This document shows, in pieces, positions 4,274-24,928 of a DNA stretch of 64,000 bases. The stretch is from NCBI GenBank assembly GCA_021793645.1, contig JAJYSJ010000002.1:144753-208752 (forward strand). Direction: 5' to 3'. The position numbers and the translations under genes were made by a program. Below the pieces are notes generated by a model. That model saw nothing but the letters and a program-made list of their open reading frames with translations. It was not told the DNA's origin and searched no databases. Position 1 is the first letter of the stretch. Every line of letters starts with the position of its first letter. The stretch is from Bacillota bacterium. Lineage in GTDB: Bacteria > Bacillota > Sulfobacillia > JAJZYS01 > JAJYTV01.

Positions 4274-5064
4274 GCGGCCTGAGGAAGCTCCTCTCCGTCT
4301 TCCGCGCCTACTTCCGCAGCGTCTGGGCCTACCCTGGCGCGGAGGCGATGCGCACGATCTTCCTCGTCGTCATCATGATCGTCTTCCTGTCGCTCTGGCG
4401 CACGACGTACAGCGCAATGGGCGCGACCCGCCTGGGCGGCCTCAGCCTGCCGCAGATGCTGGAGTACCTCGTCGGCACGGAGGCGATCGTGCTCGCGGCG
4501 CCTGCCTTCGCGGCCCGCATCGGCGACGACGTGCGCACGGGCGGTCTTTCGGTGCAGCTCACGCGCCCGGTCTCCTACGTCGCCTTCCAGTTCGCCGTCG
4601 CAGCGGGAGAGAGCTGGCCGCGCCTAGCGCTGAACCTCCTCGTAGGCACTGCCCTCGTGTGGCTGGTCACGGGTGTCGAGCCGCTCAGCGCGGCAGGCGT
4701 AGCGGCATACCTCATTGCCTACCTGCCGGCCTTTCTCCTGTACGCGTCGCTCTTTCTCACCCTGGCGCTGACGAGCTTCTGGCTCGAGGACGCGTGGGCG
4801 ATCACGTTCGTCGCGAGCCGCATGGTGATGATTCTCGGCGGCCTTCTGGTACCGCTCTCGCTGTTCCCTGCGGCGCTGCGGACGGTGGCGCGCATCCTGC
4901 CGCTGCAGCTGATGGTCTACGGGCCGGCGCAACAGCTCTCGCACCCCTTTGCTGCTCTGGGGACGCTGCTGCTCAGTCAGGCGATTTGGCTCGCCGTCCT
5001 GGGCGGGCTCCTCTGGTTCGTCTACGCGAGGGGGGTGCGTGCGCTCCATGTCCACGGCGGATAG
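4270..5064 (+). CDS. ABC-2 family permease
   Basis: Hydrophobic multi-TM protein. The GTG start overlaps the ATPase stop by 4 nt (translational coupling). Confidence 0.75.
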   Translation: MSGLRKLLSVFRAYFRSVWAYPGAEAMRTIFLVVIMIVFLSLWRTTYSAMGATRLGGLSLPQMLEYLVGTEAIVLAAPAFAARIGDDVRTGGLSVQLTRPVSYVAFQFAVAAGESWPRLALNLLVGTALVWLVTGVEPLSAAGVAAYLIAYLPAFLLYASLFLTLALTSFWLEDAWAITFVASRMVMILGGLLVPLSLFPAALRTVARILPLQLMVYGPAQQLSHPFAALGTLLLSQAIWLAVLGGLLWFVYARGVRALHVHGG

Positions 5065-5839
5065 GATCCTCTTCTGGCCGCGGCTTCTCCTTTCGGCCCT
5101 GCGCGCCCAGGCTGCCTACCGCGGCGCGTTCGTGCTCTCCATCGCCGCGATGGTACTCAACGACGGCGTCTGGCTCGTCTTCTGGTGGCTCTACTTCTCG
5201 CGCTTCCCGGTCGTGCACGGCTGGCGCCTCACGGACATCGCGGCGCTCTGGGCGATCGGGGCGACGGCGATCGGGCTGACGCACGGCCTGCTCGGCAACC
5301 TCCCGCGCCTCGCGCAGCTGATTATGCAGGGCGAGCTCGACGTCTACCTCTCGCTGCCGAAGTCCGCCCTCCCCCACCTGCTTCTGAGCCGTGTCCACGT
5401 CGCGAACCTGGGCGACGTGGTGTTCGGTCCCATGGTCTTCCTGCTTCTTCTGCACCCGACGCCGGCGCGCACCGGCCTCTTTCTCCTCGCCGTGCTGCTC
5501 AGCGCCGCAATCTTCTTCGCCTTCACGCTGATCGTCCATACCACGACCTTCTACCTCGGCCGCGCGGACCTCTTGGCCGAGCAGGTCTCGATCAGCATGG
5601 TCACCTTCAGCACTTACCCGAGTCCGATCTTCCAGGGCGCGCTGCGGGTGCTGCTCTTCACCGTCCTGCCGGCCGGATTCATCGACACGATGCCGATCTC
5701 CGTGCTGCGCGCGCCGGATCCCCGCTTCATCGCCGCGACGGCGGGCTTTGCCGTCCTGTTGAACGCGCTCGCGCTGCTGTTCTGGCATAGGGGGCTGCGG
5801 CGCTACGAGTCGGGAAACCTGTTTCAGGCACGGCTCTAA
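5048..5839 (+). CDS. ABC-2 family permease (second membrane subunit)
   Basis: Multi-TM protein. ATG at 5048 overlaps the preceding permease by 17 nt. Confidence 0.7.
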   Translation: MSTADRILFWPRLLLSALRAQAAYRGAFVLSIAAMVLNDGVWLVFWWLYFSRFPVVHGWRLTDIAALWAIGATAIGLTHGLLGNLPRLAQLIMQGELDVYLSLPKSALPHLLLSRVHVANLGDVVFGPMVFLLLLHPTPARTGLFLLAVLLSAAIFFAFTLIVHTTTFYLGRADLLAEQVSISMVTFSTYPSPIFQGALRVLLFTVLPAGFIDTMPISVLRAPDPRFIAATAGFAVLLNALALLFWHRGLRRYESGNLFQARL

Positions 5840-5882
5840 GCACAGCGGACAGCATCACGCGACGAAGTCGAGGTGGAATGCA

Positions 5883-6776
5883 TTGGATCAGCGTTTGGTC
5901 GCGTTTCTGGCTGTCGCTCGTGCGGGACGCGTCACCCAGGCCGCCCGGCAACTCAATCTGTCGGTCTCGAGCGTCTCGCAACAGATCACGAGCCTTGAAT
6001 CCGATTTTGGCGTGCGCCTGTTCGTACGCAGCAATCGTGGTGTCGTGCTGTCACCAGCCGGCGCCACCTTGCGCAGCTTCGCCGAGAACATCGAGGCTGA
6101 CTGGCGGAGCGCGTTCCGCGCAGTTCGCCAGTCAGCAGCCGGTGACCTCGTCGTTCACATGTCGGCGAGTCATACTGTCGCGGAGATCTTCCTGCCGCGT
6201 CCGCTCGGTCTCTACCGCCGCCTCTATCCCGCGGTGCAGCTGAACCTTACGGTGCAGAACAGTGCCGCGGTACTCGTGCAGGTCGAGACGGGTCAAGTGG
6301 ACTTCGGAATCGCTGAAGGCCGGCTCGCGCGCCATCGGCTCCACGTACGCGATCTCTGGCGCGACGAGTTGGGTCTGATCGTCTCCGCATCCCACCCATG
6401 GGCGGGGCGCGAAGGAATTGACATCGCCCAGCTGCAGGAGGCGGACCTCATTCTGCGCGAGGAGGGCTCCGGCACCCGCCGCATCTTCGAGTCCGCGCTG
6501 CACGACGCAGGCCATGCCTTGGATTCGCTGCACGTGATCATGGAGCTCTCCTCGCTACGGGCGATCGTCGCCATGGTCCGTCACGGCGTCGGCGTCAGCG
6601 TGCTCTCGCGGATGGTGGCGGAAGAGGAGCGCGAGTCCGGCATCGCCTTCGTGCCGCTACCCGGACTTCGCCTGAAGCGCCAGATCTATCTCCTGGACCG
6701 TGGAGAACAGGACCTCGGTCCCGCCGCGCGACAGTTAAGCGCCCTTCTGGTCAAGGAGAGCGCAAGGCGTTCGTAG
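5883..6776 (+). CDS. LysR-family transcriptional regulator
   Basis: N-terminal HTH (VTQAARQLNLSVSSVSQQITSLE) plus a LysR substrate-binding domain. Confidence 0.9.
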   Translation: MDQRLVAFLAVARAGRVTQAARQLNLSVSSVSQQITSLESDFGVRLFVRSNRGVVLSPAGATLRSFAENIEADWRSAFRAVRQSAAGDLVVHMSASHTVAEIFLPRPLGLYRRLYPAVQLNLTVQNSAAVLVQVETGQVDFGIAEGRLARHRLHVRDLWRDELGLIVSASHPWAGREGIDIAQLQEADLILREEGSGTRRIFESALHDAGHALDSLHVIMELSSLRAIVAMVRHGVGVSVLSRMVAEEERESGIAFVPLPGLRLKRQIYLLDRGEQDLGPAARQLSALLVKESARRS

Positions 6777-6892
6777 CCGCCGAAGCCGCGGGCGTACGGA
6801 ATTGCCGAACGCGCCTCGCCGTCTTCCGTACGCCGGGCGTCCTCCCGCGTGCCATCATCGGAGGCACATCCCGCACGTGGGAGGCTGGAACC

Positions 6893-7960
6893 TTGGATGC
6901 TCTGAAACGCTTCACTCCGAACTGGTTCACCGTCGGGATGGGCACCGGCATCACCGCACTCGACGCCTACATCCTGCCTGGCGCCCCCGCCTGGCTGAGG
7001 GATGCTGCCACCGTGCTCTGGCTCGTGAACCTCGGTGCTGTCACCGTGTTCTTCGTCCTGTTCGCTACTCGTGCAATCGTGGATCGCCGTGGGGTGATAA
7101 AGGTCCTGCATGACCCAGTGCAGTCCATGTTCCTGGGTGCCATCCCGATGGCCTTAACAACGGTCGTGAATGGTTTCCTCGACATGGGGGCGCCGCTCTT
7201 CGGTGCCGCCGCGATACGCATCGGCTACGACCTTTGGGTGGTGAACGTCTTGCTCGCGGTGGCCTCGGGTGTGGTCGTCCCCTATCTCATGTTCCTCTCG
7301 CACGACCACCGGCTCGAGCGCATGACGGCCATCTGGCTGATGCCGGTCGTGCCGGCCGAGGTCGTCGCGGCGACGGCCGGCATCCTGATCCCGCACTTCG
7401 GACTCGCAGCAGGTCAGACGCTCGCAGTGATCGGCATGGTGCTCTGGGCGCTCAGCGTGCCGATCGCCTTCCTGATCCTGGGCACGCTGTTTCTCCGTCT
7501 GACGCTGCACAAACTGCCGCCAAAGGAGATGGCCATCACCACCTGGATCTCCCTCGGTACGCTTGGCACCGGCGTCATGGGATTGATCAGCCTGGGAAAG
7601 TCCTTGCCGCTCCTGTTTGGCGCGGTGGGATCAGGCATGGACGGCGGCGCGGTACTGGGTGCGGTGATTCTCTGGGGATTCGGACTGTGGTGGCTGGTCA
7701 TGAGCATCCTGACGACGGTGCACTACGTGCGGCGCGGCCTGCCCTTCAACCTTGGCTGGTGGGGCCTCACGTTCCCGCTCGGGGTGTTCTCCGGCGGAAC
7801 CGATCTCCTGTATGCCCAGCTGCACGTCCCGCTGATCGGTTTCCTCGCGCTTGTCTTCTTCGTCATGCTGGTGTCGTTTTGGGGGATTGTCGCCTCTCGC
7901 ACGCTTCTCGGCTTGGTGGGCCCGCGCGTACCGCGCATCGCGCCCGCCGAGGCGGACTGA
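6893..7960 (+). CDS. TDT-family transporter (TehA / Mae1 C4-dicarboxylate / SLAC1-like)
   Basis: Ten-TM protein with a TehA/Mae1-like N-terminus (WFTVGMGTGI). TTG start with a GGGAGG RBS. Adjacent to the LysR regulator. Confidence 0.7.
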   Translation: MDALKRFTPNWFTVGMGTGITALDAYILPGAPAWLRDAATVLWLVNLGAVTVFFVLFATRAIVDRRGVIKVLHDPVQSMFLGAIPMALTTVVNGFLDMGAPLFGAAAIRIGYDLWVVNVLLAVASGVVVPYLMFLSHDHRLERMTAIWLMPVVPAEVVAATAGILIPHFGLAAGQTLAVIGMVLWALSVPIAFLILGTLFLRLTLHKLPPKEMAITTWISLGTLGTGVMGLISLGKSLPLLFGAVGSGMDGGAVLGAVILWGFGLWWLVMSILTTVHYVRRGLPFNLGWWGLTFPLGVFSGGTDLLYAQLHVPLIGFLALVFFVMLVSFWGIVASRTLLGLVGPRVPRIAPAEAD

Positions 7961-8074
7961 CAACACCCGCGTTTCCTTTGCCACACGGCGGGTACACGCC
8001 TACCGAAACGCAAAGCGGAAGGCGTTCGGTGTTCCAGCAGCGCTCTACACTTCGCTTGGAGGCGTGGAGTCTCT

Positions 8075-8350
8075 TTAGGTAGCCCGCCCAAGGAGCAGGA
8101 CGCCGCCGATCAGGACGAAAGCGACGCCCGCGCCGATCTGAATGTAGCGTAGAGGGACAAGTCGCGTCAGCGCCTCGCCGAACACCACTCCGATCAACGA
8201 GGAGAGCACGAGGGCAAGACCTGCCGCTGCGAAGATCAGCAGCGGTGAGCGCGTGCGTGCGGCCAGCATCATGGTAGTGAGCTGTGTCTTATCGCCTAAT
8301 TCAGCCAGAAATACCAGTCCAAAGGTGACGGCAAAGGCCTTGAGATCCAC
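8075..8350 (-). CDS. UPF0016 / GDT1 (TMEM165) family half-size membrane protein
   Basis: ELGDKTQ motif with 3 TM helices. GTG start at 8350 with a GAGGGTGGAGG RBS. The N-terminal 23 codons of the track ORF were judged non-coding. Confidence 0.7.
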   Translation of the reverse strand: MDLKAFAVTFGLVFLAELGDKTQLTTMMLAARTRSPLLIFAAAGLALVLSSLIGVVFGEALTRLVPLRYIQIGAGVAFVLIGGVLLLGRAT

Positions 8351-8726
8351 ACCGCACCTCCACCCTCGTCTTCGGTTTGGATGGTATGCTGTGTTGCCGT
8401 CCCGCAAGACCAGTAGCACACGCGGGACACGTCCTCAAAAGCCGAAGCAGGCGGACAGAGAGCGCCAAGCGCTGTCCTTGACGCGGACGACCAGTCTGCC
8501 ACTGTCGCTTGCGGGTATGATGACGAGTCAGAAATCGTTTGGAAGCAGTTTGGCGCGATACATGTGTCCGCCGACCCCGTCAAGCTGGAGACCGATGTTC
8601 CGCCTTGGATGCGACCCGCGACAACAACTTGACTGGCGGAGCTTGTCGACGCCCGTATCGGTCCTGCAGCCGTGACCTCAACCTGCTGTGAGCAGCCATA
8701 GACTTGAAGGCACCTCGCCTCGCCGG

Positions 8727-9863
8727 CTACTCCTTGCGGCGGCTCGCGATGATCAATACGTCCGCGTCCCGCGTCTCCCGCAGAATCCGCTCGATTACAG
8801 AGCCGCGGAGCATCTCCTCCCATCGGCTTCTGCGGGATTCGCCGAGGATGATTTGCGTCGCGCGCACTTCCTTGGCGATCGCCACTAGGCGGCGCGCAAC
8901 GTCGTAATCCTCCTCGCGGGTCAGCGCCGCGCCGAGCTCGCGCGCGAGGCGCAGGTTGAGGTCCAGTGCCTGCGCCTCCTTCAGGCTCGGTGCGGTGTCG
9001 GGCTTTTTCACCGTCGCGACCAGGAAGTCTCCCTTGAGTCGGCGGGCCATGCGGTAGCCGCGGCGGATCAGCACCTGGCCGCTAAGGGTCGAGGTGACGC
9101 AGACGAGCACCCGCTCCTTCGTCTGCCACGGACCGGAAATGTGGTGCAGCCGCATGTAATCATCTAGGGCGCTGTCCGTCTCGTCTGCCACGGTCCGAAG
9201 GGCGAGCTCTCGCAGGGCGGTGAGGTTCCCGATCCGGAAGAAATTCTCAAGCGCGCGGCGCACCTGTTCCGGCGGGTAGACCTTCCCCTGCTGCAGGCGC
9301 TCCACGAGGGCGTCCGGTGCAAGGTCGATCAACCGCAGTTCTGTCGCATCCGCCAGGACCGAGTCCGGGACCGTCTCCCTGACCCGTACCCCGGTCACCT
9401 GCGCGACGATGTCGTTCAGGCTCTGCAGGTGCTGCACGTTCAGCGTCGAGTGCACGTTGATACCGGCTTCGAGGATGTCCTGCACGTCCTCATAGCGCTT
9501 CTCGTGCCGCAGGCCGGGCGGATTCTGGTGCGCCAGCTCGTCGACCAGCACGACATCCGGCTGGCGACGAAGGACAGCGTCGATGTCGAGCTCCTGCCGG
9601 ACAATGCCGTTGTACGGCACTTCGAGCGCAGGCAGCGCTTCGATCCCATCGAGGAGTTCGATCGTCTCCGCCCGCCCGTGGGTATCGATGATGCCCGCCA
9701 CGACATCGATGCCGCCCTCGCGCAAAGAGTGGGCTTCACGCAGCATGGCGTACGTCTTGCCGACTCCCGCGGCGGCCCCGATGAAGATCTTGTGTCGCGC
9801 GCGGCGTAGGTGCTCGATCTGCTGCAGAACCTCCTCCGACGTACGCCTGCGGTAGTCGCTCAT
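8727..9863 (-). CDS. kdpD: KdpD N-terminal sensor domain + Usp domain protein (no histidine kinase domain)
   Basis: Walker A-like GAAAGVGKT and the KdpD cytoplasmic domain signature, followed by a Usp-like C-terminus. Only 378 aa: no transmembrane or HisKA/HATPase part. Its start overlaps the kdpC stop by 4 nt. Confidence 0.85.
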   Translation of the reverse strand: MSDYRRRTSEEVLQQIEHLRRARHKIFIGAAAGVGKTYAMLREAHSLREGGIDVVAGIIDTHGRAETIELLDGIEALPALEVPYNGIVRQELDIDAVLRRQPDVVLVDELAHQNPPGLRHEKRYEDVQDILEAGINVHSTLNVQHLQSLNDIVAQVTGVRVRETVPDSVLADATELRLIDLAPDALVERLQQGKVYPPEQVRRALENFFRIGNLTALRELALRTVADETDSALDDYMRLHHISGPWQTKERVLVCVTSTLSGQVLIRRGYRMARRLKGDFLVATVKKPDTAPSLKEAQALDLNLRLARELGAALTREEDYDVARRLVAIAKEVRATQIILGESRRSRWEEMLRGSVIERILRETRDADVLIIASRRKE

Positions 9864-10453
9864 CGTTTCGCTTCAAGACGCCTGAGCGCCAGGTTGAGCT
9901 GCAGCACGTTGACCCGTTGCGGGCCATAGAGGTCGAGCGACGGTCCGCGGACCTCGCGCAGAACGAGCGCGCGCAGCCGCCCTGCGGAGATGCCAGTCCG
10001 CTTGGCTAGCCCCGGCACCTGGAGGAGTGCCGACTGCAGGGTGATCTCCGGATCGAGGCCGGAGCCCGAACTCTCGACCAGGTTCGCCGGAATCGGTCCC
10101 GGACCGACCAGCGGTCGGATCGCAGCGATGTCGCTGCGCACCGCCTGCACGAGGGCGCGGTTCGTCGGTCCGAGGTTCGAGCCGCCCGAGTTGTTGGCCG
10201 CGTACGGCTCAGGCTTACCCGTCTGAGGATTCACGGTTGCGGAGGGTCGGTCCTGAAACAGGTCCTTGGACGTGACCGCCTGACCGATCAGCATCGAACC
10301 GACAACGCGCCCGCCGCGCGTGACGAGGGACCCGTTCGCCTGGCGAGGGAAAAGGGCCTGGCCGATGCCGAGGACAATCACGGAATACGCGATGCCGAAG
10401 ATCAGGAAGGTCACGATGGCCAGCCGAACGTTGCGCCAAATCTCCGCGAGCAT
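9860..10453 (-). CDS. kdpC: potassium-transporting ATPase subunit C
   Basis: KdpC-like sequence with one N-terminal TM helix, located between kdpB and kdpD. Confidence 0.9.
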   Translation of the reverse strand: MLAEIWRNVRLAIVTFLIFGIAYSVIVLGIGQALFPRQANGSLVTRGGRVVGSMLIGQAVTSKDLFQDRPSATVNPQTGKPEPYAANNSGGSNLGPTNRALVQAVRSDIAAIRPLVGPGPIPANLVESSGSGLDPEITLQSALLQVPGLAKRTGISAGRLRALVLREVRGPSLDLYGPQRVNVLQLNLALRRLEAKR

Positions 10454-10471: not shown

Positions 10472-12517
10472 TCAGATGTGCGCAAGCCCCAAGGCAGTGA
10501 GCGCGAGGTCGATCAGCTTGATGCCAAGGAACGGTGCGATGACGCCGCCGAGGCCGTAGATGAGCATGTTCCGCTGCAGCATCTGCGTCGCGTTCATCGG
10601 GCGGTAGCGCACGCCCCGCAGGGCGAGCGGAATCAGGGCCGGGATGATCAGGGCATTGAAGATGAGCGCCGAGAGGATTGCGCTCCTGGGCGACGTCAGG
10701 TGCATGACGTTGAGGGCTTGCAGGGCCGGAACGGTAGCAACGAACATCGCAGGGATGATCGCGAAGTACTTCGCGACATCGTTGGCGATCGAGAAGGTCG
10801 TGATCGCACCGCGCGTGATCAGCAGCTGCTTGCCGATCGAGACGACCTCGATCAGCTTCGTCGGGTCGGAGTCGAGATCGACCATGTTGCCTGCTTCCTT
10901 GGCTGCAGACGTCCCGGAGTTCATCGCGAGCCCGACGTCCGCCTGCGCCAGTGCCGGGGCGTCATTCGTCCCGTCGCCGGTCATCGCGACGAGTTTGCCC
11001 TGGGACTGCTCTTCGCGGATGCGCCGCATCTTGTCCTCCGGCTTCGCCTCGGCGATGAAGTCGTCGACCCCTGCCTCGCGGGCGATCGTCGCGGCCGTCA
11101 GCGGATTGTCGCCTGTCACCATCACGGTGTGGATGCCCATCCGGCGCAGTGCCGCGAAGCGATCCTGCATGCCCGGCTTGATGATGTCCTTGAGGTGAAT
11201 CACACCGAGAACCATCCCCTGATCGATCACGGCCAGCGGGGTGCCGCCGGCGCGGGCGATCTCCTCGGTGATGGCGTCCAGTTCCGGTGGCAGCGCCCCC
11301 GCACCGCGCAGGGCCATCCGCTTGATCACATCGACCGCGCCCTTGCTGATCTCCCTGCCGCCCGCCAGCACGATGCCGGAGCGCCGGGTCTCTGCCGAGA
11401 AGGCGATGGCGGCAGCGCCTACCAGTACATCCGGTGCAACGTCGACGCCCTGCTTGCGGGCGAGATCCACGATCGAGCGCCCCTCCGGCGTCTCGTCGTA
11501 GTACGAGGCGAGGAGGGAGGCTTCGACCATCTGGGCCGCCTCCACGCCTGGCAGGGGACGGAACGCATCTGCCATGCGGTTGCCGAGCGTGATCGTGCCC
11601 GTCTTGTCGAGGATCAGGGTGTCGACGTCCCCCGCCGCCTCCACCGCCCTGCCGGACTTGGCGATGATGTTGAAGCGGATGACGCGGTCCATGCCAGCGA
11701 TCCCGATCGCCGAGAGAAGCGCTCCGATCGTCGTCGGGATCAGGCAGACGAGCAGCGCGATCAGCGTCGCGATCGAGAGCGTGCTGTGCAGGTAATGCGC
11801 CATCGGCGGCAGCGAGTCGATCACGATCAAGAAGATCAGCGTAAGGGCCGAGAGGAGCACGGTGAGGGCGATCTCGTTCGGCGACTTCTGGCGCTCCGCA
11901 CCCTCGACGAGGGCGATCATGCGGTCCAGGAAGGACTTGCCCGGTTCCGCCGTCACACGCATCTCGATCCAGTCGGAAAGCACCTTCGTCCCTCCGGTGA
12001 CCGAGGAGAAGTCGCCGCCAGCCTCGCGGATCACGGGTGCAGATTCTCCCGTAATCGCCGACTCGTCGATCGATGCCACGCCCCGCACGATCTCTCCATC
12101 CGCCGGTACCAGTTCACCGGCCGCTACTCGAACCAAATCACCCGTACGCAGGCTGGAGGCCGCCGCGTCCCCCATCGGACGGCCGCTTTCATCGATGCGG
12201 TGCGCAACCGTGTCGCTCTTCGTACGGCGCAGGCTCGCTGCCTGCGCGCGCCCTCGGCCTTCTGCCAGCGCCTCCGCGAAGTTCGCGAAGAGCAGCGTCA
12301 GGAGCAGGATCACGGTCACGACAATGTCATAGGGACGGGCACCCGGACCCGTACTGCCGAAGATGCGCGGATCCACGCTCAGCAGGAGCGTGATGAAGGT
12401 TCCCACCTCAACCACGAACATCACGGGGTTGCGCCACTGGACCCTTGGGTCGAGCTTCGCGAACGAGTCGACGAGTGCCTGGCGGTAGACGCCTTCGTAG
12501 GAAATGCCGCGTTGCAT
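10472..12517 (-). CDS. kdpB: potassium-transporting P-type ATPase subunit B
   Basis: P-type ATPase motifs [15 protein letters not shown] and [10 protein letters not shown]; 681 aa. Confidence 0.95.
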
Positions 12518-12519
12518 GA

Positions 12520-14217
12520 CTAGAACACCTTTCCGGCCAACATGGCCAACTGTTCCGCAATCGGCCCCAGCGCAAGCGCCGGGAAGAACGTCAGGGCGCC
12601 GACGATCAGGAGCACTCCCATGTAGACGACGCCGAAGGTCCAGGTGTCCGTTCGCAGGGTCCCGGGCGATGCCGGGACGGTCTTCTTCCCAGCCAGCGAG
12701 CCCGCGATGTAGAGCATGAGGAGCATCGAGGGATAGCGACCGAGCAGGATCACGATGCCTGTGGTGATGGCGTAGAAGGGCGACGAGGCGCCGAGTCCCG
12801 CGAACGCACTGCCATTGTTGGCTGCGGCGGACGTATAGGCGTAGACGACTTCACTGAGGCCGTGCAATCCCGGATTGAAGATCCCCGCGAGGCCGGCGGC
12901 TGACGCAAGGGCGATTGCGGACGGCCAGAGGATGATCAGCGGATGGATCAGCATGGCCGCCGCTGCGGCCTTCACTTCGCGCGCCTCGATCTTCTTGCCG
13001 AACAGTTCCGGGGTTCGTCCGACCATCAGGCCAGTGACGAAGACGGCGAGGATCACGAACATCAGGATGTTGAGCAGTCCTGCACCCACGCCGCCAAAGA
13101 CCGCGTTGAGCATCATCTGGAAGAGCGGCACAATGCCTCCCAAGGGCAAGAGGCTGTCGTGCATCGCATTGACGGCTCCGGTGGTGTAGGCGGTGGTTAG
13201 GGTCGCAAAGAGCGACGTTCCGGCAATACCAAAGCGCGTCTCCTTGCCGATCCAGTTTGCGCCGGAAACTTTCAGCAGGTGCTGCAGGATTGGGTTTCCA
13301 CCCGCCTCCGCGCTATAGAGGACGAGCAGCAGCACGACCATCAGGCCCATCGTCACGCCGTAGAGCACCCAGGCCTGCTTGCGATTCTTGATGTAGTTGC
13401 CGAAGGTGAACAGCAGTGCCGTCGGCAGGAGCGCCATCAAAAATTCCTCGATCAGGTTGGAGATCGGTGTAGGGTTCTCGAACGGATGGGCGGAGTTCGC
13501 GTTGAAGAAGCCGCCGCCGTTCGTGCCCAGCTGCTTGATCGCCTCGAATGCCGCAACCGGACCGCGGGAGATGGTCTGCACGCCGCCCGACAGCGTGTGC
13601 GCCGTCACGGCTCCCCCAAGGGTGTCCGGAACCCCAGTGGCCAAAAGTGCGATCGCGAAGAGCAGCGCGATTGGGAAGAAGATGCGCGTCAATGACCGCA
13701 CGAAGTCGCGGTAGAAGTTGCCAAGGTCCGTACGTCCCGGCGTGAAGCTGCGTGCAAAGGCGATTGCCACCAGCAGGCCAGACGCCGGGGAGGTGAACTG
13801 AAGGAACTGCAGCGCCCACTGGCTGAGGTAGCTCAGCGCCGTCTCGCCCGAGTAGACCTGCCAGTCGCAGTTGGAGATGAAGCTGACAACCGTGTTGAAG
13901 ATGGTGGTTGGGGCAATCGGGCCGATCCTTGCCGGATTAAGCGGCAAGGACGTCTGGAAGACCAGGACAAGGTACACGACGATCGCCATCACGAGATTCG
14001 AAAGCAGAAATGCGATTGCGTAGCCGCGCCAGTCCATGCCGCGCTCCGGGTCGATGCCCGCCACGCGGTAGATCAGGCGGTCGAACGGGTCAAGGAGGCG
14101 GTCTAGAAGTGTCCTTTGCCCCTCCATCACCCGGTAGATGTACGTCCCGACCGGTACCGCGACGGCGGTCAGGACGGCCAGAAACAATGCATCGCCGAGG
14201 AGTCCCCGTATGGTCAT
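12520..14217 (-). CDS. kdpA: potassium-transporting ATPase subunit A
   Basis: 565-aa polytopic KdpA-like protein immediately upstream of kdpB. Confidence 0.95.
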
Positions 14218-14896: not shown

Positions 14897-15205
14897 TCCT
14901 TTGCGTCCCGGCGATGCACCGGGATCGGAAGACACGTGCGCCACCTTCCCCCCTGCGGCTTGCGAGGTTAGCTGACGGGCTCGGTGGGGAGGCCACCGGT
15001 CGCATCCGCGACTTCGCCCCGATGTTCGGGTCCCCCGCCCCGGTGTTCCCACCGGGTTCAGCCATGCAACATACAAACGCCACTATAGCACCTGGACCGC
15101 AGGAGTAAAGCGTCTCCCTGGATGGTCCAGCGCGCCGAAGAAGTCAAACGCAGTGATGTGATTCGATTGCGCAGCGCGTACGCTTTGCGTCTTCGCCTGC
15201 CGCCG

Positions 15206-18396: not shown

Positions 18397-19059
18397 CTAC
18401 CGCTCTGTGCGCAGTCCAGCCAGATCCTCCAGCGCGACGCCCTCAAGCGTAGTACGGCGTACTGCGGTCGACGGGAACGCAAAGCTGCTTGTGACGCTAT
18501 TTGGCACAACGAGGCAAGCTACACCTGCGCGCGCGGCTGCTAGCGCTCCATTCGGAGAGTCCTCCACGGCGACGGCCTCGCTCGCCGCTATGCCAAGCCG
18601 TTCCAGTGCAAGGAGGTAGACGGCCGGGTCTGGCTTGCCGCGCCCCGTGTCGTCGGAGCAGCAGATCGTCGTAAAGGCGTCGATCAACCCCAGTCGGCGC
18701 AGATGTCGCTCCACCCAACCGTGTTGGGAGCTGGAAGCGATCGCGAGTGCCACTCCTGCGGCCTCGGCCTGAGCGATCAAGGCGCGCACGCCCGGGCGGG
18801 CGTCCATTGCGTCCGTGAGCGCGCGGTCCCGTTCGCGCCTGCGGTGCCTAATCTCCTGATGAGGCAGCTTCTGACCGGTCAGCTGCTCGAGATGGGCGAC
18901 CGGATCGAAGCCGCCGCCAGCGGTACCGACGACGTTTGCCCAGGTGGAGAGTGCTAGGCTCTGGCCGTAGCGGGCATACACCTCCTGCCAGGTGCGGTAC
19001 TCCGCGTCTTCGGTGTCCAAAATGGTGCCGTCGAAGTCGAACACGAGCGCCTTAAGCAC
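18397..19059 (-). CDS. HAD-IA family hydrolase (beta-phosphoglucomutase-like phosphatase)
   Basis: Motif I DFDGT, motif III K and motif IV EDSPNG. GTG start with a GAGG RBS overlaps the DoxX stop by 8 nt. Confidence 0.8.
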   Translation of the reverse strand: MLKALVFDFDGTILDTEDAEYRTWQEVYARYGQSLALSTWANVVGTAGGGFDPVAHLEQLTGQKLPHQEIRHRRRERDRALTDAMDARPGVRALIAQAEAAGVALAIASSSQHGWVERHLRRLGLIDAFTTICCSDDTGRGKPDPAVYLLALERLGIAASEAVAVEDSPNGALAAARAGVACLVVPNSVTSSFAFPSTAVRRTTLEGVALEDLAGLRTER

Positions 19060-19480
19060 TAGCGGCCTCGCGCGGCTTTGGTACGATGGCGAACGAGAGC
19101 ACCATAAGCAGACCGTCGCGGATGAAGTCGCTTGGCGTGATCCCGTGCTGCAGTGCACCGAAGCAGCCGCACCCAAGCGCACCGAGATGGTGCGCCTTTT
19201 CCCAGGTGAGGAAGATCAAAAAGAAGATGTAGATGGCGCCGTTCAACACCGCCACAGGCCGGATTCGCCACGCAAACAGGCTGGCGGCGGCCGTGACCAG
19301 GAACAGCGCGATCTCTCCGTATGGCAGTGCGCCCATGGGCAGCCACGACGGAAGGCCAAGTGCTGCGGTCTGCGACGAGAAGGTCGATGCGGCGTGCAGC
19401 TTCGCGACCGCCGCGACGAGCCAAACCAGTGCGAGACCGAAGAGTGCGACCCGTCTTGCGATGGCCCAGACCGAGTTCAA
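19052..19480 (-). CDS. DoxX-family membrane protein
   Basis: Small 4-TM DoxX/MauE-like protein. Its start overlaps the tenA stop by 4 nt. Confidence 0.65.
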   Translation of the reverse strand: MNSVWAIARRVALFGLALVWLVAAVAKLHAASTFSSQTAALGLPSWLPMGALPYGEIALFLVTAAASLFAWRIRPVAVLNGAIYIFFLIFLTWEKAHHLGALGCGCFGALQHGITPSDFIRDGLLMVLSFAIVPKPREAASA

Positions 19481-20127
19481 TCTGTTTCCTCCTTGCGCGC
19501 GCCGTAGGCCTGCTGCCAGAAGGCGTGCTCGTGCAGGGTGCCCTGCCGGAAGATCGCCGCAAGTTCACCGGCGCGCTCGACCGGCAGCGTGTCGCTGACG
19601 CTGAGCATTTCGCCTACCGCCTGCCCGTACTCCTCCCCCGCGTAGGTCTCGATCCATTCCTGGTAGGCAGGGTGCGGGGACCCGCCCAGCGCCAGCAGCT
19701 GCAATCCAACCTCCCGATAGATCCAGTAGCAAGGGAGCAGCGCGGCGACGATCCGTGGAAAGTCTCCGCGCAAACCGTGGCGCATCAAAAAGTCGCTGTA
19801 GGCAACAGTTGCAGGCCCCTGCTGTACGGCGTGCAGAGCGCCGGGATCGCTGCCGAGCTGCCGCGTCAGTTTTTCGTGCAGCGCCTTTTCAACGAGAAAG
19901 ACATTCTGCGCGTGCGCGGCAAGCATCCGCATCGCGTGTCCGCTTGGCGCATGGGCGCCGCCGAGCAGCAGGACGCGTGCAAAGCCCTCGAGGTAAAGGT
20001 AGTCCTGAGCGAGAAAACGCCGAAACGCCGCTTCGTCCAGCGTGCCTTCATGCAGTTCGCGCAGGAACGGGTGCTCCATGATGCGCGGCCAAAGGTCTGC
20101 GATCGCGGACCAAAGCAGGGAATTCAT
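19477..20127 (-). CDS. tenA: thiaminase II / aminopyrimidine aminohydrolase
   Basis: TenA/THI-4 family similarity over the full length. Start overlaps the thiD stop. Confidence 0.85.
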   Translation of the reverse strand: MNSLLWSAIADLWPRIMEHPFLRELHEGTLDEAAFRRFLAQDYLYLEGFARVLLLGGAHAPSGHAMRMLAAHAQNVFLVEKALHEKLTRQLGSDPGALHAVQQGPATVAYSDFLMRHGLRGDFPRIVAALLPCYWIYREVGLQLLALGGSPHPAYQEWIETYAGEEYGQAVGEMLSVSDTLPVERAGELAAIFRQGTLHEHAFWQQAYGARKEETD

Positions 20128-20936
20128 CGAGTGAAGGCCTCCGTCCAGGCGGGTTGGCCGGCGTGGTGATCCAGCGGTCCATGACCGGAACCAAGGCCAG
20201 GCGCCCTGGCGATCGCTGCACGCACATAGCTGATCGCCCGCTCAACCGCTTGCGCAAGTTCAAGGTGCTGGCCGAGACCCGTAGCGATCGCTGCCGAAAG
20301 GGTGCAGCCTGTGCCGTGCGTATGCCGCGTCTGCAGACGCTGTCCGCGATATGCCGTGAACGTACGTCCGTCGAAGAGGAGATCCTCGATCTCCTCTTCG
20401 ACGCCGTGTCCTCCCTTGACGAGTGCTGCCCGCGCACCCAGCGCAACCAGCCTGCGCGCGGCCTCCTCTCGACCTGCGCGGGTATCCGTCGAGGCGCCGG
20501 TTAGCGCCTCCACCTCCGGCAGGTTCGGCGTGACGAGCCAGGCGAGCGGAAGGATGTCCTCGCGCAGCGTAGCTTCCGCGCTGGCCGCAAGCAGACGGTC
20601 TCCACCCTTCGCCCGCATGACCGGGTCCACGACCAGCGGCACGTCCGGCAAGGCACGCAGCGCTGCGCCGACTGCCCGCACCGCCTCTGCGTCTCCGAGC
20701 ATGCCGCATTTCGCAGCGTCCACCCCGATGTCTTGTGCAACGACCTCGATCTGCCGGGAGATCGCTTCGGGAGGCAGTGGCCAGATCCCGTGCACGCCCT
20801 GCGTGTTCTGCGCGGTCACGGCCGTGACCGCCGCCATGGCGTAGCCCCCGAGGCGCTCGATCGTCTTGATGTCCGCCTCGATCCCTGCGCCCCCGCCGGA
20901 GTCGCTGCCGGCGACGGTGAGGATGCGGGCGGGCAT
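20124..20936 (-). CDS. thiD: hydroxymethylpyrimidine / phosphomethylpyrimidine kinase
   Basis: ThiD/PdxK ribokinase-fold motifs (GSDSGGGAGIEADIKT, GTGCTLSAAIA). Confidence 0.9.
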   Translation of the reverse strand: MPARILTVAGSDSGGGAGIEADIKTIERLGGYAMAAVTAVTAQNTQGVHGIWPLPPEAISRQIEVVAQDIGVDAAKCGMLGDAEAVRAVGAALRALPDVPLVVDPVMRAKGGDRLLAASAEATLREDILPLAWLVTPNLPEVEALTGASTDTRAGREEAARRLVALGARAALVKGGHGVEEEIEDLLFDGRTFTAYRGQRLQTRHTHGTGCTLSAAIATGLGQHLELAQAVERAISYVRAAIARAPGLGSGHGPLDHHAGQPAWTEAFTR

Positions 20937-21994
20937 CAGAGGCCCGCCTCCATCGCCTTGCCGAACGCGGCCCAGAACGGGTCGACGCCCGGGTGGACGA
21001 GCGGGCGGTCGCCCGCGTCCGTGGTGAGGATCATGCCGCGCTCCTCAGGTAGGATCTCTCCGATCGCACTCGCCGGCACCCCGGCCTCAGAGAGGGCCCG
21101 GAGAATGCCATCCGCGTGCTCAGGCCGCGCGGTGAGAAGAAGAGTCCCCTCCGAAATCGCGGCGAGGGGGTCGATTCCGACCGCATCGCAGACAGCCCGT
21201 ACTTCTTCGCGCACCAGCACCTTGCGCTCTTCGAGGCGTACCCCGACACCCGACGCCTGCGCGATCTCGAAGACCCCGCCCAGCACCCCGCACTCCGTCG
21301 CGTCATGCATCGCCGTCACGCCGCGCTCGCGCACACCGTACGCCGAAGCTGCCATCGCATCCTTGACGACGCTCATCTGGTAGAAGAGCTCCTGCGCCTT
21401 CAGCGACAGGTCCGCCCCAATCCGACGGGCAAGCTGATCGGGAAACGTTACGCCGAACAGCCCCGTCGCCTCGATGGCCGCCCCCTTCGTCGCGAGCAGG
21501 ACATCGCCAGGGCGAGCCATCTCTGGCGTGACGTAGGCATCCTTGGCTCCAACCGCGACGACCGTGGCGCCGCCGACCATCGGGTAGGCGCATCCCTCGT
21601 AGCGCGCCGTGTGGCCAGAGATCACGGCGATGCCGAGCTCGCTGCAGGTCTCGTGCATCGCGTCCCAAAGTTCTGTAAGTTCCGGGCCAGTGATTTCGAG
21701 CGGCAGGTTGAGGTCGATCGCGATGTAGGCCGGAGGCAGACCGGACGTGGCAACATCGGACGCGAGGATGTGAATCGCGAACCAGGCCGCACGGCGCATT
21801 CCGTACTGCGGCACGACGAATACGGGGTCGCAGGTGGTTGCCATCACGCGATCTTTGCCGATCTCCACCACCGCGATGTCTACACCGGATCGCGGTCCGA
21901 CGAGCACCTCGGGGCGTGCGGCACCAAGGCGCGGGTAGATTAGAGACGAGAATACCTCCGGTGAGATCTTGCCGACCGCTGGAAGCTCCGGCAT
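20936..21994 (-). CDS. AIR synthase-related (PurM-superfamily) protein, first gene of the TPP-riboswitch operon
   Basis: PurM-like N- and C-domains (DPVFVVP, GHTARYEG, the HDATECGVLGG region). The start is set at MPELPAVGK (GGAGGG RBS, 8-nt spacer); the longer track ORF runs through the riboswitch and is rejected. Confidence 0.75.
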   Translation of the reverse strand: MPELPAVGKISPEVFSSLIYPRLGAARPEVLVGPRSGVDIAVVEIGKDRVMATTCDPVFVVPQYGMRRAAWFAIHILASDVATSGLPPAYIAIDLNLPLEITGPELTELWDAMHETCSELGIAVISGHTARYEGCAYPMVGGATVVAVGAKDAYVTPEMARPGDVLLATKGAAIEATGLFGVTFPDQLARRIGADLSLKAQELFYQMSVVKDAMAASAYGVRERGVTAMHDATECGVLGGVFEIAQASGVGVRLEERKVLVREEVRAVCDAVGIDPLAAISEGTLLLTARPEHADGILRALSEAGVPASAIGEILPEERGMILTTDAGDRPLVHPGVDPFWAAFGKAMEAGL

Positions 21995-22007
21995 CGATGC
22001 ATCCCTC

Positions 22008-22048
22008 CAAAAAATCAGCATGGCCGCTGCCAGCAGGCAGCGGCCGCC
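22008..22048 (-). terminator. attenuator terminator of the TPP riboswitch expression platform
   Basis: GGCCGCUGCC-ugcu-GGCAGCGGCC stem followed by UGAUUUUUUGG, immediately before the RBS of the PurM-like gene. Confidence 0.65.
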
Positions 22049-22063
22049 AAACTTCTTGGCGCG

Positions 22064-22150
22064 CTTCCCTACGCTGGCATGACCCAGTTCAGGTTCGAAG
22101 GGTCGGCGCGATTGCACCTCTCAGCCTCGCCTACGAGGCTCCCCTAGCGT
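22064..22150 (-). promoter_or_regulatory. TPP (thiamine pyrophosphate) riboswitch, THI-box aptamer
   Basis: Minus-strand sequence ..GGGGAGCC..GCUGAGAGG..ACCCUUCGAACCUGAACUGGGUCAUGCCAGCGUAGGGAAG matches the conserved THI-element core (CUGAGA, ACCCUU.GAACCUGAUC.GG.UAAUGCCAGCGUAGGGAA). Confidence 0.85.
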
Positions 22151-22197
22151 TCGGAGTAATCGTAGCACGCGGGCACACCCGATGCACTACTTGCCAC

Positions 22198-22252: not shown

Positions 22253-22591
22253 TTAGTATCCGACGACTTGATAGCCCTCTTCGGTCAGCTGCACCAGCAC
22301 GTCCCCCGCCGGCTCCAGGCTGACACCGTAGGCCTGCAGCCGATCTTCGGCGCCGAGCTGCTTCGCATTGAACTGGCAGGCGATGATCGGTCCACCGGCG
22401 CCCTTCAGCCCCTCGAGCGCCTCGCGCAGTTCACCGGTCGCCTCGTCCAGCAGTTTCACGGCGGGTCCGAAGAAGACGACCTTCGTCTCTGCGCGACCGC
22501 TCTGGCGCAAACGGGCCGCGATGCGCACGCCCGCCAGTGCCTTGCCTTCCTGTCCGGGACCTGCGGTGATCCAACTTGCAATCTTCGTCAT
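22253..22591 (-). CDS. DsrE/DsrF-like family protein
   Basis: 112-aa protein with a DsrE-fold pattern (GPAVKLL, conserved Cys in IIACQ). GAGGAGG RBS. Confidence 0.65.
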   Translation of the reverse strand: MTKIASWITAGPGQEGKALAGVRIAARLRQSGRAETKVVFFGPAVKLLDEATGELREALEGLKGAGGPIIACQFNAKQLGAEDRLQAYGVSLEPAGDVLVQLTEEGYQVVGY

Positions 22592-22611: not shown

Positions 22612-23544
22612 TTATCGGGTCACGACCGGCGGCAGCTCCCGCACCCGGATCGACGCCTCCTGCAACTCGCCGTGACGCAGGACGGAAAGTACGAGGCGGT
22701 CACCGACCTCGGTGCCGCGAACCACACGCCGCAAAGCAGCGATCGAGGGAGTCTTCTCTCCGCCGGCAGCGGTGATCACGTCGAAGGGCAGGAGACCTGC
22801 AGCGTCTGCGGGACCGCCAGGCTCTACCTCCAGTGTTGCCACACCGCGCGCCGCAGGCAGCTCGAGAAGCTGCGCCAGTTCCGGCGAGACCACCTCGGTT
22901 GTGCCGCGGATGCCGATCCAGGGATGCTGTGCTCGGCCCAGGCGCCGGAATTGTCCAAGCGCCAGTTCCACCTGCCAGGTGGGAATGGCGAAGCCGAGGT
23001 TCTGCCCTTGCGCGAGGATCATGGTCGGAATGCCGACCAGGCGACCTTCGAGGTCCGTGAGTGCGCCGCCGGAGTTGCCGGGGTTGATCGCTGCGTCCGT
23101 CTGCACGAGCCCATCGAGCGGTCCCAGCATACGTTCGACCGCGCTCACGACGCCAAGCGTAACCGTCCAGTCGAAGCCAAACGGATTGCCAACCGCGAGG
23201 ACCAGCTGACCCGGACGGAGTTCCGCCCGCGTCGCGAGCGACACAGCTTCACGTACGGGCGACTGCGTGCGCACGAGCGCGAGGTCGTACAGCCGATCAA
23301 GCGCTAGGACCTGTCCGCCGCGCGTGATGCCGTCGTGGAACGTGATGGCCACCTCGGACTGCCCGTGCACGACATGCGCATTCGTGACAATCTCGCCTGC
23401 CGCCGCATCCACAAGCACTCCAGAGCCGACACCGCTACCGCGGGCTCCCTGCGCCTCGACGCGCACGACGCTTGGGCCAACCTTTGCCGCCGCCTCCTGA
23501 ATGCCAGCTGAGACGAGGGCGGCCGCTGTGTTGTCCATCTCCAT
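22612..23544 (-). CDS. trypsin-like serine protease with PDZ domain (HtrA/DegP family, S1C)
   Basis: Catalytic His (TNAHVV), Asp and Ser (GNSGGAL) plus a C-terminal PDZ domain. No N-terminal TM helix. Start MEMDNT with a GGAGGGAGAGG RBS. Confidence 0.85.
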   Translation of the reverse strand: MEMDNTAAALVSAGIQEAAAKVGPSVVRVEAQGARGSGVGSGVLVDAAAGEIVTNAHVVHGQSEVAITFHDGITRGGQVLALDRLYDLALVRTQSPVREAVSLATRAELRPGQLVLAVGNPFGFDWTVTLGVVSAVERMLGPLDGLVQTDAAINPGNSGGALTDLEGRLVGIPTMILAQGQNLGFAIPTWQVELALGQFRRLGRAQHPWIGIRGTTEVVSPELAQLLELPAARGVATLEVEPGGPADAAGLLPFDVITAAGGEKTPSIAALRRVVRGTEVGDRLVLSVLRHGELQEASIRVRELPPVVTR

Positions 23545-23599
23545 GTGCCTCTCCCTCCATCGGCTTGCCGAGCTTTCCGGTGAGGTACCCAAAACTTAC

Positions 23600-23640
23600 G
23601 TTAGGTAAGTAACTTACGATTGTCAAGCGAATGTGTTACA
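23600..23640 (+). promoter_or_regulatory. candidate sigma-A promoter of the hxlR-like gene (TTACGA -17 nt- TGtTACAAT)
   Basis: Extended -10 TGtTACAAT and a weak -35 read directly, about 20 nt upstream of the GGAGG RBS. Confidence 0.3.
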
Positions 23641-23660
23641 ATGCCTGCGGAGGCGATCCC

Positions 23661-24008
23661 GTGCTCTACGACGTGATGTGCCCACGCTACGAGCAGGCCG
23701 CACAACTTCTTGGGAAAAAATGGACGAACCTCATCCTTCGGGTCTTGATGGGCAGGCCTCGCCGCTTCGGGGAATTCCGCCATCAGGTGCCGGAGCTCTC
23801 CGAGCGGCTGCTTTCGGAACGGTTGCGCGAACTTGAGGACGAGGGTCTCGTACGCCGCATCGTGGCGGACTGTCGACCGGTCCTGATCCTTTATGAACTG
23901 ACGCCGAAAGGGCACGAATTAGAGATTGTCGTCCAGTCGATTCAGGCATGGGCGGACAGGTGGATCTGCATCGAGGATGGGTATGCGGTGAAGGCGCGCA
24001 CCCGCTGA
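23661..24008 (+). CDS. HxlR-family transcriptional regulator
   Basis: HxlR-type wHTH (CPRYEQAAQLLGKKWTNLILRVL..PRRFGEF..). GTG start with a GGAGG RBS. Confidence 0.8.
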   Translation: MLYDVMCPRYEQAAQLLGKKWTNLILRVLMGRPRRFGEFRHQVPELSERLLSERLRELEDEGLVRRIVADCRPVLILYELTPKGHELEIVVQSIQAWADRWICIEDGYAVKARTR

Positions 24009-24057: not shown

Positions 24058-24133
24058 GCGCCCGTAGCTCAGTGGATAGAGCGCTTGCCTCCGGAGCAAG
24101 AGGCCGCAGGTTCGAATCCCGCCGGGCGCGCCA
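24058..24133 (+). tRNA. tRNA-Arg (anticodon CCG)
   Basis: 76-nt cloverleaf with a 7-bp acceptor stem GCGCCCG/CGGGCGC, D-loop AGCTCAGTGGATAGAGCG, anticodon loop cuCCGga, T-loop GGTTCGAATCC and an encoded CCA. Confidence 0.9.
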
Positions 24134-24310: not shown

Positions 24311-24928
24311 CTATGCGGGCCTGTGGTCTACCCGATAGCAGGCCAAAATGCTCCCCGAGCCTTCCGAAACCCGCGTGCTGAGCAACTTGAGCGACACCGC
24401 CGGCCGACCTTCGAAGAGCGGTGTGCCGCCGCCTCCGATCAGTGGGAAGATGGTGAACTGCAGCTCATCCACGAGACCGTGCGCGAGCAGATCGTTCCAT
24501 AGAAGGCGTCCGGAGAAGATGAGGATGTCCCGGCCCTCCTGCTGCCTGAGTGCGCCGATCTCCTTGCGTGCATCCGCCCGCCGCACGATGTGCGTGTTGT
24601 TCCAGCACCCGAGTTCATCCTCCGTCAGGTGGTCGGAGACCACCACCTTGTCGATGGGGTTCATTACATGCGCAATCTCGCGAAAGATGGGCCCGGCACT
24701 GGGGTCGTCCGGCACCGCGGACCAGTGGTCGCGAAACGCCACGAACGCCGCTTTGCTGTTTAGCACCAGTGTATCGGCGGACCGGAGTCGCTCGGCGCTG
24801 TAGCGGTGAAAGCTGCCGTCCTGCGCATAGTCCTCGTGCCAGTATTCGAACAGGTCATCGACGCTTCTGCCCGGACCTTCGTAGTAGCCGTCCAAGGAAA
24901 CCAGATTGTTCACCACGACCTTGCGCAT
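24311..24928 (-). CDS. dihydrofolate reductase-family protein (RibD C-terminal domain, PF01872-like)
   Basis: N-terminus [20 protein letters not shown] and a C-terminal GGGGTPLF motif typical of the RibD_C / YwjB family. Confidence 0.8.

Follow-up and report, generated by a model that had tools for sequence, protein, structure and literature searches.

The 64,000-nucleotide (nt) stretch of contig JAJYSJ010000002.1 analyzed here (the window), from a Bacillota bacterium, carries on its minus strand a thiamine pyrophosphate (TPP) riboswitch followed by a five-gene operon. The riboswitch and two of the genes, thiD and tenA, are ordinary. The new part is the first gene, which encodes a PurM-superfamily protein of an unassigned family, called X below. 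In the order of transcription, the unit is composed as follows.

22049-22155, minus strand: TPP riboswitch aptamer (THI element); RF00059, 75.6 bits against a gathering threshold of 54.3, E=4e-13, model positions 1-105 of 105
22009-22048, minus strand: putative intrinsic terminator/expression platform; GC-rich hairpin of 10-13 bp, alternative short hairpin CAGC..GCUG, U6
22003-22008, minus strand: Shine-Dalgarno sequence GGAGGG, 8 nt upstream of the ATG at 21994
20936-21994, minus strand: X, PurM-superfamily protein of 352 amino acids (aa), start ATG 21994; Pfam AIRS and AIRS_C
20124-20936, minus strand: thiD, bifunctional kinase of hydroxymethylpyrimidine (HMP) and HMP phosphate (HMP-P); PF08543, E=4e-89; TIGR00097, 300.7 against a cutoff of 204.95
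19477-20127, minus strand: tenA, thiaminase II/aminopyrimidine aminohydrolase; PF03070, E=2e-41; TIGR04306, 142.7 against 130
19052-19480, minus strand: MauE-family membrane protein, 142 aa; PF07291, 43.4 bits against 27; GCGCFG motif
18397-19059, minus strand: HAD-IA hydrolase, 220 aa, GTG start at 19059; HAD_2, E=3e-33; TIGR01509, 69.8 against 29.4

The aptamer was recovered in an Rfam scan of the whole window, and the THI box placed at 22064-22150 in a preliminary description of the locus falls inside the match. With R2, a covariance model built for this study, the aptamer scored 89 bits. The adjoining hairpin consists of GGCGGCCGCUGCC (22048-22036), the loop UGCU, and GGCAGCGGCC (22031-22022), with a run of six U residues 3' of it at 22014-22009. 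This hairpin was part of the minimum-free-energy fold of 21985-22160, the leader was more stable than shuffled controls (z = -2.9), and a pattern scan marked a terminator-like site in it. These results agree with the attenuator previously proposed at 22008-22048, and the leader sequence suggests that the switch works by transcription termination.

The five genes are tightly coupled, as had been described, with overlaps of 1 nt (X and thiD), 4 nt (thiD and tenA), 4 nt (tenA and the membrane protein gene), and 8 nt (the membrane protein and HAD genes). ThiD and TenA, the expected targets of a TPP riboswitch, both passed their NCBIfam cutoffs. TenA contains the PCYW motif within LLPCYWIY, and we take the Cys of this motif to be the catalytic one. 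A major facilitator superfamily (MFS) gene converges on the 3' end of the operon. Neither thiE nor thiM was found in the operon, in line with the preliminary description, or elsewhere in the 64-kb window.

The membrane protein had been assigned to the DoxX family. Pfam instead identified it as MauE, with no DoxX match at an E value of ≤0.01, and no NCBIfam family was matched. MauE and DoxX are related families. The last gene encodes a HAD protein with the DxDGT nucleophile motif in the form VFDFDGT, which passed the generic model TIGR01509 and fell below the cutoffs of all specific NCBIfam equivalogs. It had been regarded as a nonstandard member of a thiamine operon. However, plants and bacteria are known to have HAD phosphatases of thiamine monophosphate (ThMP) with genetic links to TenA or thiamine genes (TH2 and the enzymes of Hasnain 2016, both cited in PMC9544542), so the presence of a HAD gene here is less unusual than had been supposed. 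Like TH2/PALE1 and its bacterial counterparts (Mimura 2016 and Hasnain 2016, as cited in PMC9544542), the window protein is of the HAD-IA type and genetically tied to TenA and thiamine genes. In contrast to them, it is encoded by a separate gene, with the MauE-like gene between it and tenA, and it matches no specific equivalog. It is possibly a ThMP or HMP-P phosphatase.

Association of X with TPP riboswitches

Relatives of X were present in at least 589 species-level genomes among at least 599 genome stretches listed. A word-indexed search returned more than 5,500 matches, the best 120 of which were 57 to 100% identical to X and came from many phyla, and an exhaustive phmmer search gave 403 clusters (50% identity) with an E value of ≤1e-30. 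Neighborhoods were compared in 84 nonredundant genome loci and in 80 to 83 metagenome loci recruited with a broader profile, whose X proteins were 36 to 69% identical. Aptamers were located with two covariance models, R1 and R2, built from the aptamers of X loci, and were cross-checked with Rfam. Genes were assigned by same-strand operon walks, clustering, tblastn with Escherichia coli and locus-derived seeds, and Pfam and NCBIfam checks.

Of the 84 genome loci, 35 had a same-strand TPP riboswitch upstream of X or its operon, and a TPP riboswitch was found in the corresponding position in 46 of 80 metagenome loci. Rfam's own TPP model agreed in 10 of 11 spot-checked loci and also detected the riboswitch at L100 and L102, whose X proteins are 45% and 34% identical, respectively. 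The riboswitch-bearing genome loci belonged to Bacillota, Actinomycetota, Thermomicrobiales, Zixibacteria, Ignavibacteria, Caldithrix, Spirochaetia, and others, and the combination was also found in Chloroflexota, Calditrichota, and archaeal-looking contigs. X is a real, widespread, nonstandard member of the thiamine regulon, and the link that had been noted for the window operon holds far beyond this genome.

The same comparison separated X from the tail of the operon. A conserved neighborhood of the PurM-like, membrane protein, and HAD genes had been anticipated. The pairing of X with the riboswitch was indeed widespread, but the MauE-like and HAD genes occurred in only 5 of the 84 genome loci, all from a Thermaerobacter-like clade. 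Thus, these two genes are lineage-specific add-ons.

Gene neighbors and fusions of X

The most frequent partner of X was ThiE, which adjoined it in 28 of 84 genome loci and 40 of 83 metagenome loci, usually in the order riboswitch-ThiE-X or riboswitch-X-ThiE. TenI was considered in place of ThiE and was rejected, as the neighbors tested passed the ThiE equivalog cutoff (TIGR00693). Other neighbors in the genome loci were ThiD (24/84), TenA (13/84), and a CytX-type permease (8/84). ThiN, an alternative thiamine-phosphate synthase, was fused or adjacent to X in about a dozen loci. X-ThiN and ThiN-X fusions were present in three independent protein clusters (P0124, P0131, and P0204) and at L138, and one of the fusions (L097) lies behind a TPP riboswitch. 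Stand-alone ThiN adjoined X in six metagenome loci (L144, L173, L174, L179, L181, and L182). The X family is functionally tied to a thiamine-phosphate synthase of either type. A parallel to the fusions exists in yeast, where THI6 is a fusion of ThiE and ThiM.

Transporters formed another group of partners. The order riboswitch-ThiT(YuaJ)-X was found in 10 loci. In another arrangement, also seen in 10 loci, the riboswitch was followed by a membrane protein resembling an energy-coupling factor S component (ECF-S) and by X; the two genes were adjacent in 7 loci and separated by a methyltransferase gene in 3. In addition, L100 showed the order riboswitch-MFS-X-ThiE, and a TonB-dependent receptor was paired with X at L042 and L076.

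Canonical ThiL shared an operon or divergon with X in five cases (L025, L046, L038, L094/L096, and L138). The gene order was riboswitch-X-ThiE-ThiL at L025 and X-TenA-ThiE-ThiL at L046, and at L038 ThiL accompanied X in an operon cut by the contig end. On the archaeal-looking contigs L094/L096 and L138, thiC-thiL was divergent from an X-ThiN fusion (L094 span, 5798-9566), and the ThiL of L094 scored 194.6 with TIGR01379 against a cutoff of 184.15. At L094 and L138, ThiN is joined to X instead of to ThiD as in the classical archaeal ThiDN, and NF006346 matched the ThiN part only.

No match to ThiM, ThiG, ThiS, or ThiH was found within 6 to 8 kb on either side of X, either in the first 97 loci (tblastn, E value of ≤0.01) or in the other 83 (E value of ≤1e-4 and at least half of the query covered), and the Pfam family of ThiM (PF02110) was absent from the 17 X loci annotated with Pfam. 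ThiF-like matches were found in two loci of the second set (L174 and L177), 2 to 5 kb from X on the opposite strand, and a weak ThiI-type match was found at L043. Genes for HypC, HypD, HypF, or hydrogenases were not found in about 170 X loci, and no selenium genes were found in X neighborhoods.

Some gene arrangements were observed around X in addition to these. At L102 (1836-4435), L141, L154, and L160, a TPP riboswitch precedes an ECF-S-like protein and/or an S-adenosylmethionine-dependent methyltransferase (Methyltransf_11), followed by X and ThiE; to our knowledge, a methyltransferase has no place in thiamine salvage. At L064 (7827-11193) and L067 (2977-6130), BioB- and BioF-like genes, which may or may not be cotranscribed with X, lie downstream of a TPP riboswitch and X. 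Two more open reading frames (ORFs) follow the bio genes at L064; one encodes an alpha/beta hydrolase, and the other may correspond to the methyltransferase seen in a pooled scan. Many of the high-GC soil metagenome contigs L104 to L128 carry genes for a PfkB kinase and an Indigoidine_A (PsuG-like) protein downstream of ThiE-X, which are probably a pseudouridine-catabolism pair. This pair accounts for P0258 and P0177, two apparent X-PfkB fusion proteins that were rejected as frameshift artifacts of adjacent PsuK/PsuG-like genes on high-GC contigs; their tails are Arg-rich nonsense.

Sequence and fold of the X family

A protein identical to X (P0001, from a Thermaerobacter sp. metagenome-assembled genome) is named only "AIR synthase family protein," and source databases name its homologues "HypE" or "hydrogenase maturation factor." X matched the Pfam domains AIRS (47.9 bits; gathering threshold, 24) and AIRS_C (76.8 bits; 23.1) and fell below the NCBIfam cutoffs for HypE (TIGR02124, 87.6 bits against 251.6), ThiL (TIGR01379, 73.1 bits against 184.15; E=2e-20), and SelD (TIGR00476, 58.4 bits against 125). 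Its AlphaFold2 model (predicted local distance difference test score, 94.8) has the PurM fold. Foldseek matched the model with a probability of 1.0 to structures of HypE, ThiL, SelD, and PurL, with query TM-scores (TMq) of 0.76, 0.69, and 0.67 for the first three; PurL and PurM were also matched, and identities were 17 to 25%. The nearest solved sequence was that of HypE (E=3e-15), and PurM was the most distant relative among the matches. In a neighbor-joining tree, the X family formed a tight clade on a long branch, apart from HypE, SelD, and ThiL of E. coli.

The residues K9, D39, D56, D80, H128, H230, D231, E234, D338, and W341 are invariant in the wider family. A conserved Cys was considered as a hint of sulfur chemistry and rejected, since C269 also occurs in HypE and the wider family contains no invariant Cys. 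The comparison with HypE, the carbamoyl dehydratase of [NiFe]-hydrogenase maturation (PDB 2Z1E and 3WJP) and the best sequence and fold match of X, showed the shared motifs H/R-D-x-T-x-G-G and VC..G.DP. However, the C-terminal PRIC Cys, the carbamoyl/cyano carrier in HypE, is missing. None of 58 aligned members has a C-terminal Cys, and the window protein ends in ...FGKAMEAGL. Since this Cys and the hyp genes are both absent, X is not HypE; it also differs in scoring below the HypE cutoff and in being thiamine regulated.

X resembles SelD and the crenarchaeal SelD-like family (PMC4210487) in its N-terminal Lys loop (GKISPE compared with CKISPK), its Asp ligands, and an occasional NifS-type linkage. 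The essential motif of SelD is Cys-X-X-Lys with selenocysteine (Sec) or Cys (PMC4210487). In the X family the Lys (K9) is invariant, but the Sec/Cys position is occupied by Ala, Pro, Ile, or Val (LP.IGK). Thus, X is not SelD, from which it is also set apart by its low model score, the absence of selenium genes nearby, and its different clade. With ThiL (PDB 3C9T and 5DD7), X shares the PurM fold, four metal-binding Asp positions, the thiamine role, and a C-terminal D-x-F, whereas identity is only about 20 to 26%, a His replaces the Asn before the SD motif, and the N-terminal Lys loop is SelD-like.

At L060, a second PurM-superfamily paralogue (4391-5455) was observed as the last gene of an X-ThiE-ThiD operon. 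It is more HypE-like, 28% identical to X, and without a C-terminal Cys.

Full-text literature searches found no publication on the X family. The family does not appear in a paper on orphan thiamine genes (OarX; PMC11223231), in the RegPrecise supplement (PMC3766115), or among the standard thiamine pathway signatures (PMC6593275).

Proposed role of X

The locus is best explained as a TPP-repressed thiamine salvage operon of a Thermaerobacter-like Bacillota genome. When TPP occupies the aptamer, the downstream hairpin and U run would end transcription, and at low TPP, read-through would reach five translationally coupled genes. TenA would free HMP from aminopyrimidine or thiamine breakdown products, and ThiD would turn HMP into its pyrophosphate (HMP-PP). 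X would phosphorylate, with ATP, the 5-(2-hydroxyethyl) group of the thiazole moiety. It may convert hydroxyethylthiazole (HET) or carboxy-HET to HET phosphate for ThiE or ThiN and/or supply ThiL with ThMP made from thiamine. On this reading, X would be a nonhomologous analogue of ThiM and/or ThiK, derived from a ThiL/HypE/SelD-like scaffold. We tentatively favor X as a new kinase for the hydroxyethyl-thiazole moiety of HET and/or thiamine and give this reading somewhat less than an even chance. Phosphorylation of the thiazole hydroxyethyl is favored because it is the only activity that fits nearly all contexts, namely, ThiE or ThiN, ThiD, TenA, transporters, and coexistence with ThiL. A new ATP-dependent salvage step had been one of two options raised for the gene, and the riboswitch, the ThiE, ThiN, and ThiT contexts, and the coexistence with ThiL favor it over the other, a divergent ThiL.

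Known salvage operons support the comparison. X occupies the operon slot usual for ThiM, as seen in X-thiD-thiE-cytX and thiMDE-cytX (PMC3766115 supplement). The thiM-thiD-thiE and tenA operons listed there (thiMDE-cytX, thiMED, and tenA-thiW) have the same aptamer family and terminator-type platform as X operons, and both types share the partners ThiD, TenA, ThiE, and CytX and the salvage of HMP and thiazole at low TPP. They differ in that a PurM-superfamily gene heads the X operon and ThiM is missing; the window operon also lacks thiE and has the MauE-like and HAD genes. The proposed equivalence to ThiM (HET kinase) and ThiK (thiamine kinase) comes from context, as neither is homologous to X: ThiM has a ribokinase-like fold and ThiK an APH-like fold. 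In ThiL structures, the thiazole-phosphate end of thiamine phosphate is buried and the pyrimidine is solvent exposed (PMC6416309), so a ThiL-like pocket could take the thiazole alcohol. It is thus chemically conceivable that the pocket of X is ThiL-like and shifted by one phosphate.

Several points weigh against a kinase of the thiazole moiety. We know of no alcohol kinase in the PurM superfamily, whose known members phosphorylate a carbonyl, phosphate, or selenide oxygen or selenium. The ThiT-X pairs suit a thiamine kinase better, whereas the ThiE-X and ThiN-X pairs and fusions suit a HET kinase better, and a single activity joins the two sets of contexts by assumption. The absence of ThiM is local to X, as found with the E. 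coli seed, and not genome-wide. Because the window operon contains no thiE, the consumer of the X product must be encoded elsewhere. Finally, a kinase role leaves unexplained about 19 of the 84 genome loci, in which X has neither a riboswitch nor thi genes and lies in cysteine/Fe-S/sulfur-relay islands. The island genes encode Rrf2, CysK, CysE, a HcyBio plus NIL-domain protein, NifS, NifU, TusA, DsrE, MnmA, FdhD, MOSC, NadA, and a BcrAD-type ATPase, and the hosts are Chloroflexota, Dehalococcoidia, and Omnitrophota-type genomes (L024, L037, L043, L072, L074, L083, and others; X at about 8001-9040). No other riboswitches were found in the island loci. The X proteins of the islands group in a single nested subclade, and all of the invariant residues are retained in them. 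At L037, a tRNA-Sec was observed 5 kb from X.

These islands bear most directly on the proposal that X performs sulfur-linked thiazole chemistry, as a SelD- or HypE-like ATP-dependent activator of sulfide, persulfide, or a carbonyl that is then thiolated. The alignment of the N-terminal GKISPEVF of X with the SelD Lys loop CKISPKVL is in its favor, as is the lack of any ThiS, ThiF, ThiG, or ThiH gene adjoining X in thi clusters, and a thiophosphate compound has been suggested as the product of the SelD-like family (PMC4210487). Moreover, two findings partly link the thiamine and sulfur contexts: NadA-ThiN-X occurs at L173 and L182, in the latter as NifS..FdhD..NadA-ThiN-X, and MnmA follows the ThiN-X fusion at L093. 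However, both the Sec/Cys of the SelD motif and the C-terminal Cys of HypE are missing in X, and the wider family has no invariant Cys. The units in which X accompanies ThiT, MFS, or TonB-dependent transporters suggest salvage of an imported compound rather than sulfur insertion, and part of the island signal may be inherited synteny, since these loci belong to one nested subclade. Sulfur chemistry thus keeps a small share of the probability. We give a slightly smaller share to X as an isofunctional divergent ThMP kinase that replaces ThiL, the option that had been raised first for this gene. The superfamily and fold are the same, ThiL structures are among the best Foldseek matches, TIGR01379 is matched with a low E value, the C-terminal D-x-F aligns with the DHF of ThiL, and successive steps would be brought together where X adjoins ThiE or is fused to ThiN. 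Nevertheless, X scores far below the ThiL cutoff, the ThiT-X pairs need the first phosphorylation of thiamine and not the second, and a canonical ThiL that passes or nearly matches the model accompanies X in the five cases above, where X would be redundant. The coencoded ThiL indicates that X is not a ThiL substitute.

An activity in the pyrimidine arm, such as an HMP-P kinase supplying HMP-PP to ThiE or ThiN, is about as unlikely as ThiL replacement. X holds the place of ThiD of the classical ThiD-ThiN fusions at L094 and L138, and conversion of a phosphate to a pyrophosphate is chemistry of the ThiL type, but the canonical bifunctional ThiD found beside X in 24 of 84 genome loci, including the window, would make such an activity redundant, and the riboswitch-ThiT-X and MFS-X-ThiE units have no source of HMP-P. 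PurM and PurL activate a formyl or amide oxygen, and X could likewise be a PurM-type cyclo-ligase or repair enzyme that activates, with ATP, a formamide or carbonyl in damaged or ring-opened thiamine for reclosure or recycling; the thiol form, formylaminopyrimidine, and oxo-derivatives are the candidates. In line with this, X shares its operon with TenA in the window and in 13 of 84 loci, and Hanson and coworkers see unassigned thiamine-linked genes as likely salvage or damage-control genes (PMC11223231). The link to ThiE and ThiN, fusions included, is much stronger than that to TenA, though, many units consist of a transporter and X or of ThiE and X only, and PurM is the most distant of the relatives matched, so that we consider repair slightly less likely still. 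The last alternative, a HypE or selenophosphate-type protein placed downstream of a riboswitch by chance, would agree with the database labels and with the best sequence and fold match. Such a protein without a thiamine context had been named as the case that would overturn a thiamine role, and X does not correspond to it: the HypE score is far below the cutoff, the C-terminal Cys and the SelD Cys are lacking, no hyp or sel genes occur in any locus, and more than 80 loci from many phyla show the association with the riboswitch and thi genes. The context data effectively refute this reading, to which we assign practically no probability.

Other features of the window

Directly upstream of the riboswitch and outside the regulated unit, a 112-aa protein is encoded at 22253-22591 on the minus strand. 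It is weakly DsrE/DsrF-like (22.5 bits against 22.7) and keeps its position in related Bacillota loci (cluster c26, L008 to L011). An HtrA-like protease gene (22612-23592) precedes it. A tRNA-Arg(CCG) gene (24058-24133, plus strand) lies near genes for an HxlR-type regulator (23631-24008) and a RibD_C-domain protein (24311-24928).

On the other side of the operon, a cyclic di-AMP (c-di-AMP) riboswitch (RF00379, 81 bits; 14943-15073, minus strand) lies upstream of kdpA (12520-14217), kdpB (10472-12517), and kdpC (9860-10453), all on the minus strand. After kdpC, a KdpD sensor-domain/Usp protein without the kinase part is encoded at 8727-9863 (minus strand). This arrangement suggests that c-di-AMP controls the Kdp potassium pump.

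Implications for thiamine metabolism

X probably marks an undescribed step of vitamin B1 metabolism. On balance, it is probable that X founds a new thiamine enzyme family, either as the first alcohol kinase (for HET or thiamine) of the PurM superfamily, which would replace ThiM or ThiK in many phyla of bacteria and archaea, or, more radically, as an ATP-dependent step linking cysteine or sulfide sulfur to the thiazole used by ThiE or ThiN. The family is now mislabeled "HypE" or "AIR synthase" in databases. Reconstructions of the thiamine pathway assume a complete enzyme roster, which would gain a widespread member if this proposition is true. Vitamin auxotrophy and cross-feeding in microbiomes are predicted from signatures of ThiD, ThiE, ThiM, and ThiL (PMC6593275), and for many uncultured lineages such predictions of auxotrophy would be corrected once an activity is assigned to X. 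The assignment would also give the PurM superfamily a new reaction type and could clarify how soil and sediment organisms recycle thiazole and thiamine.

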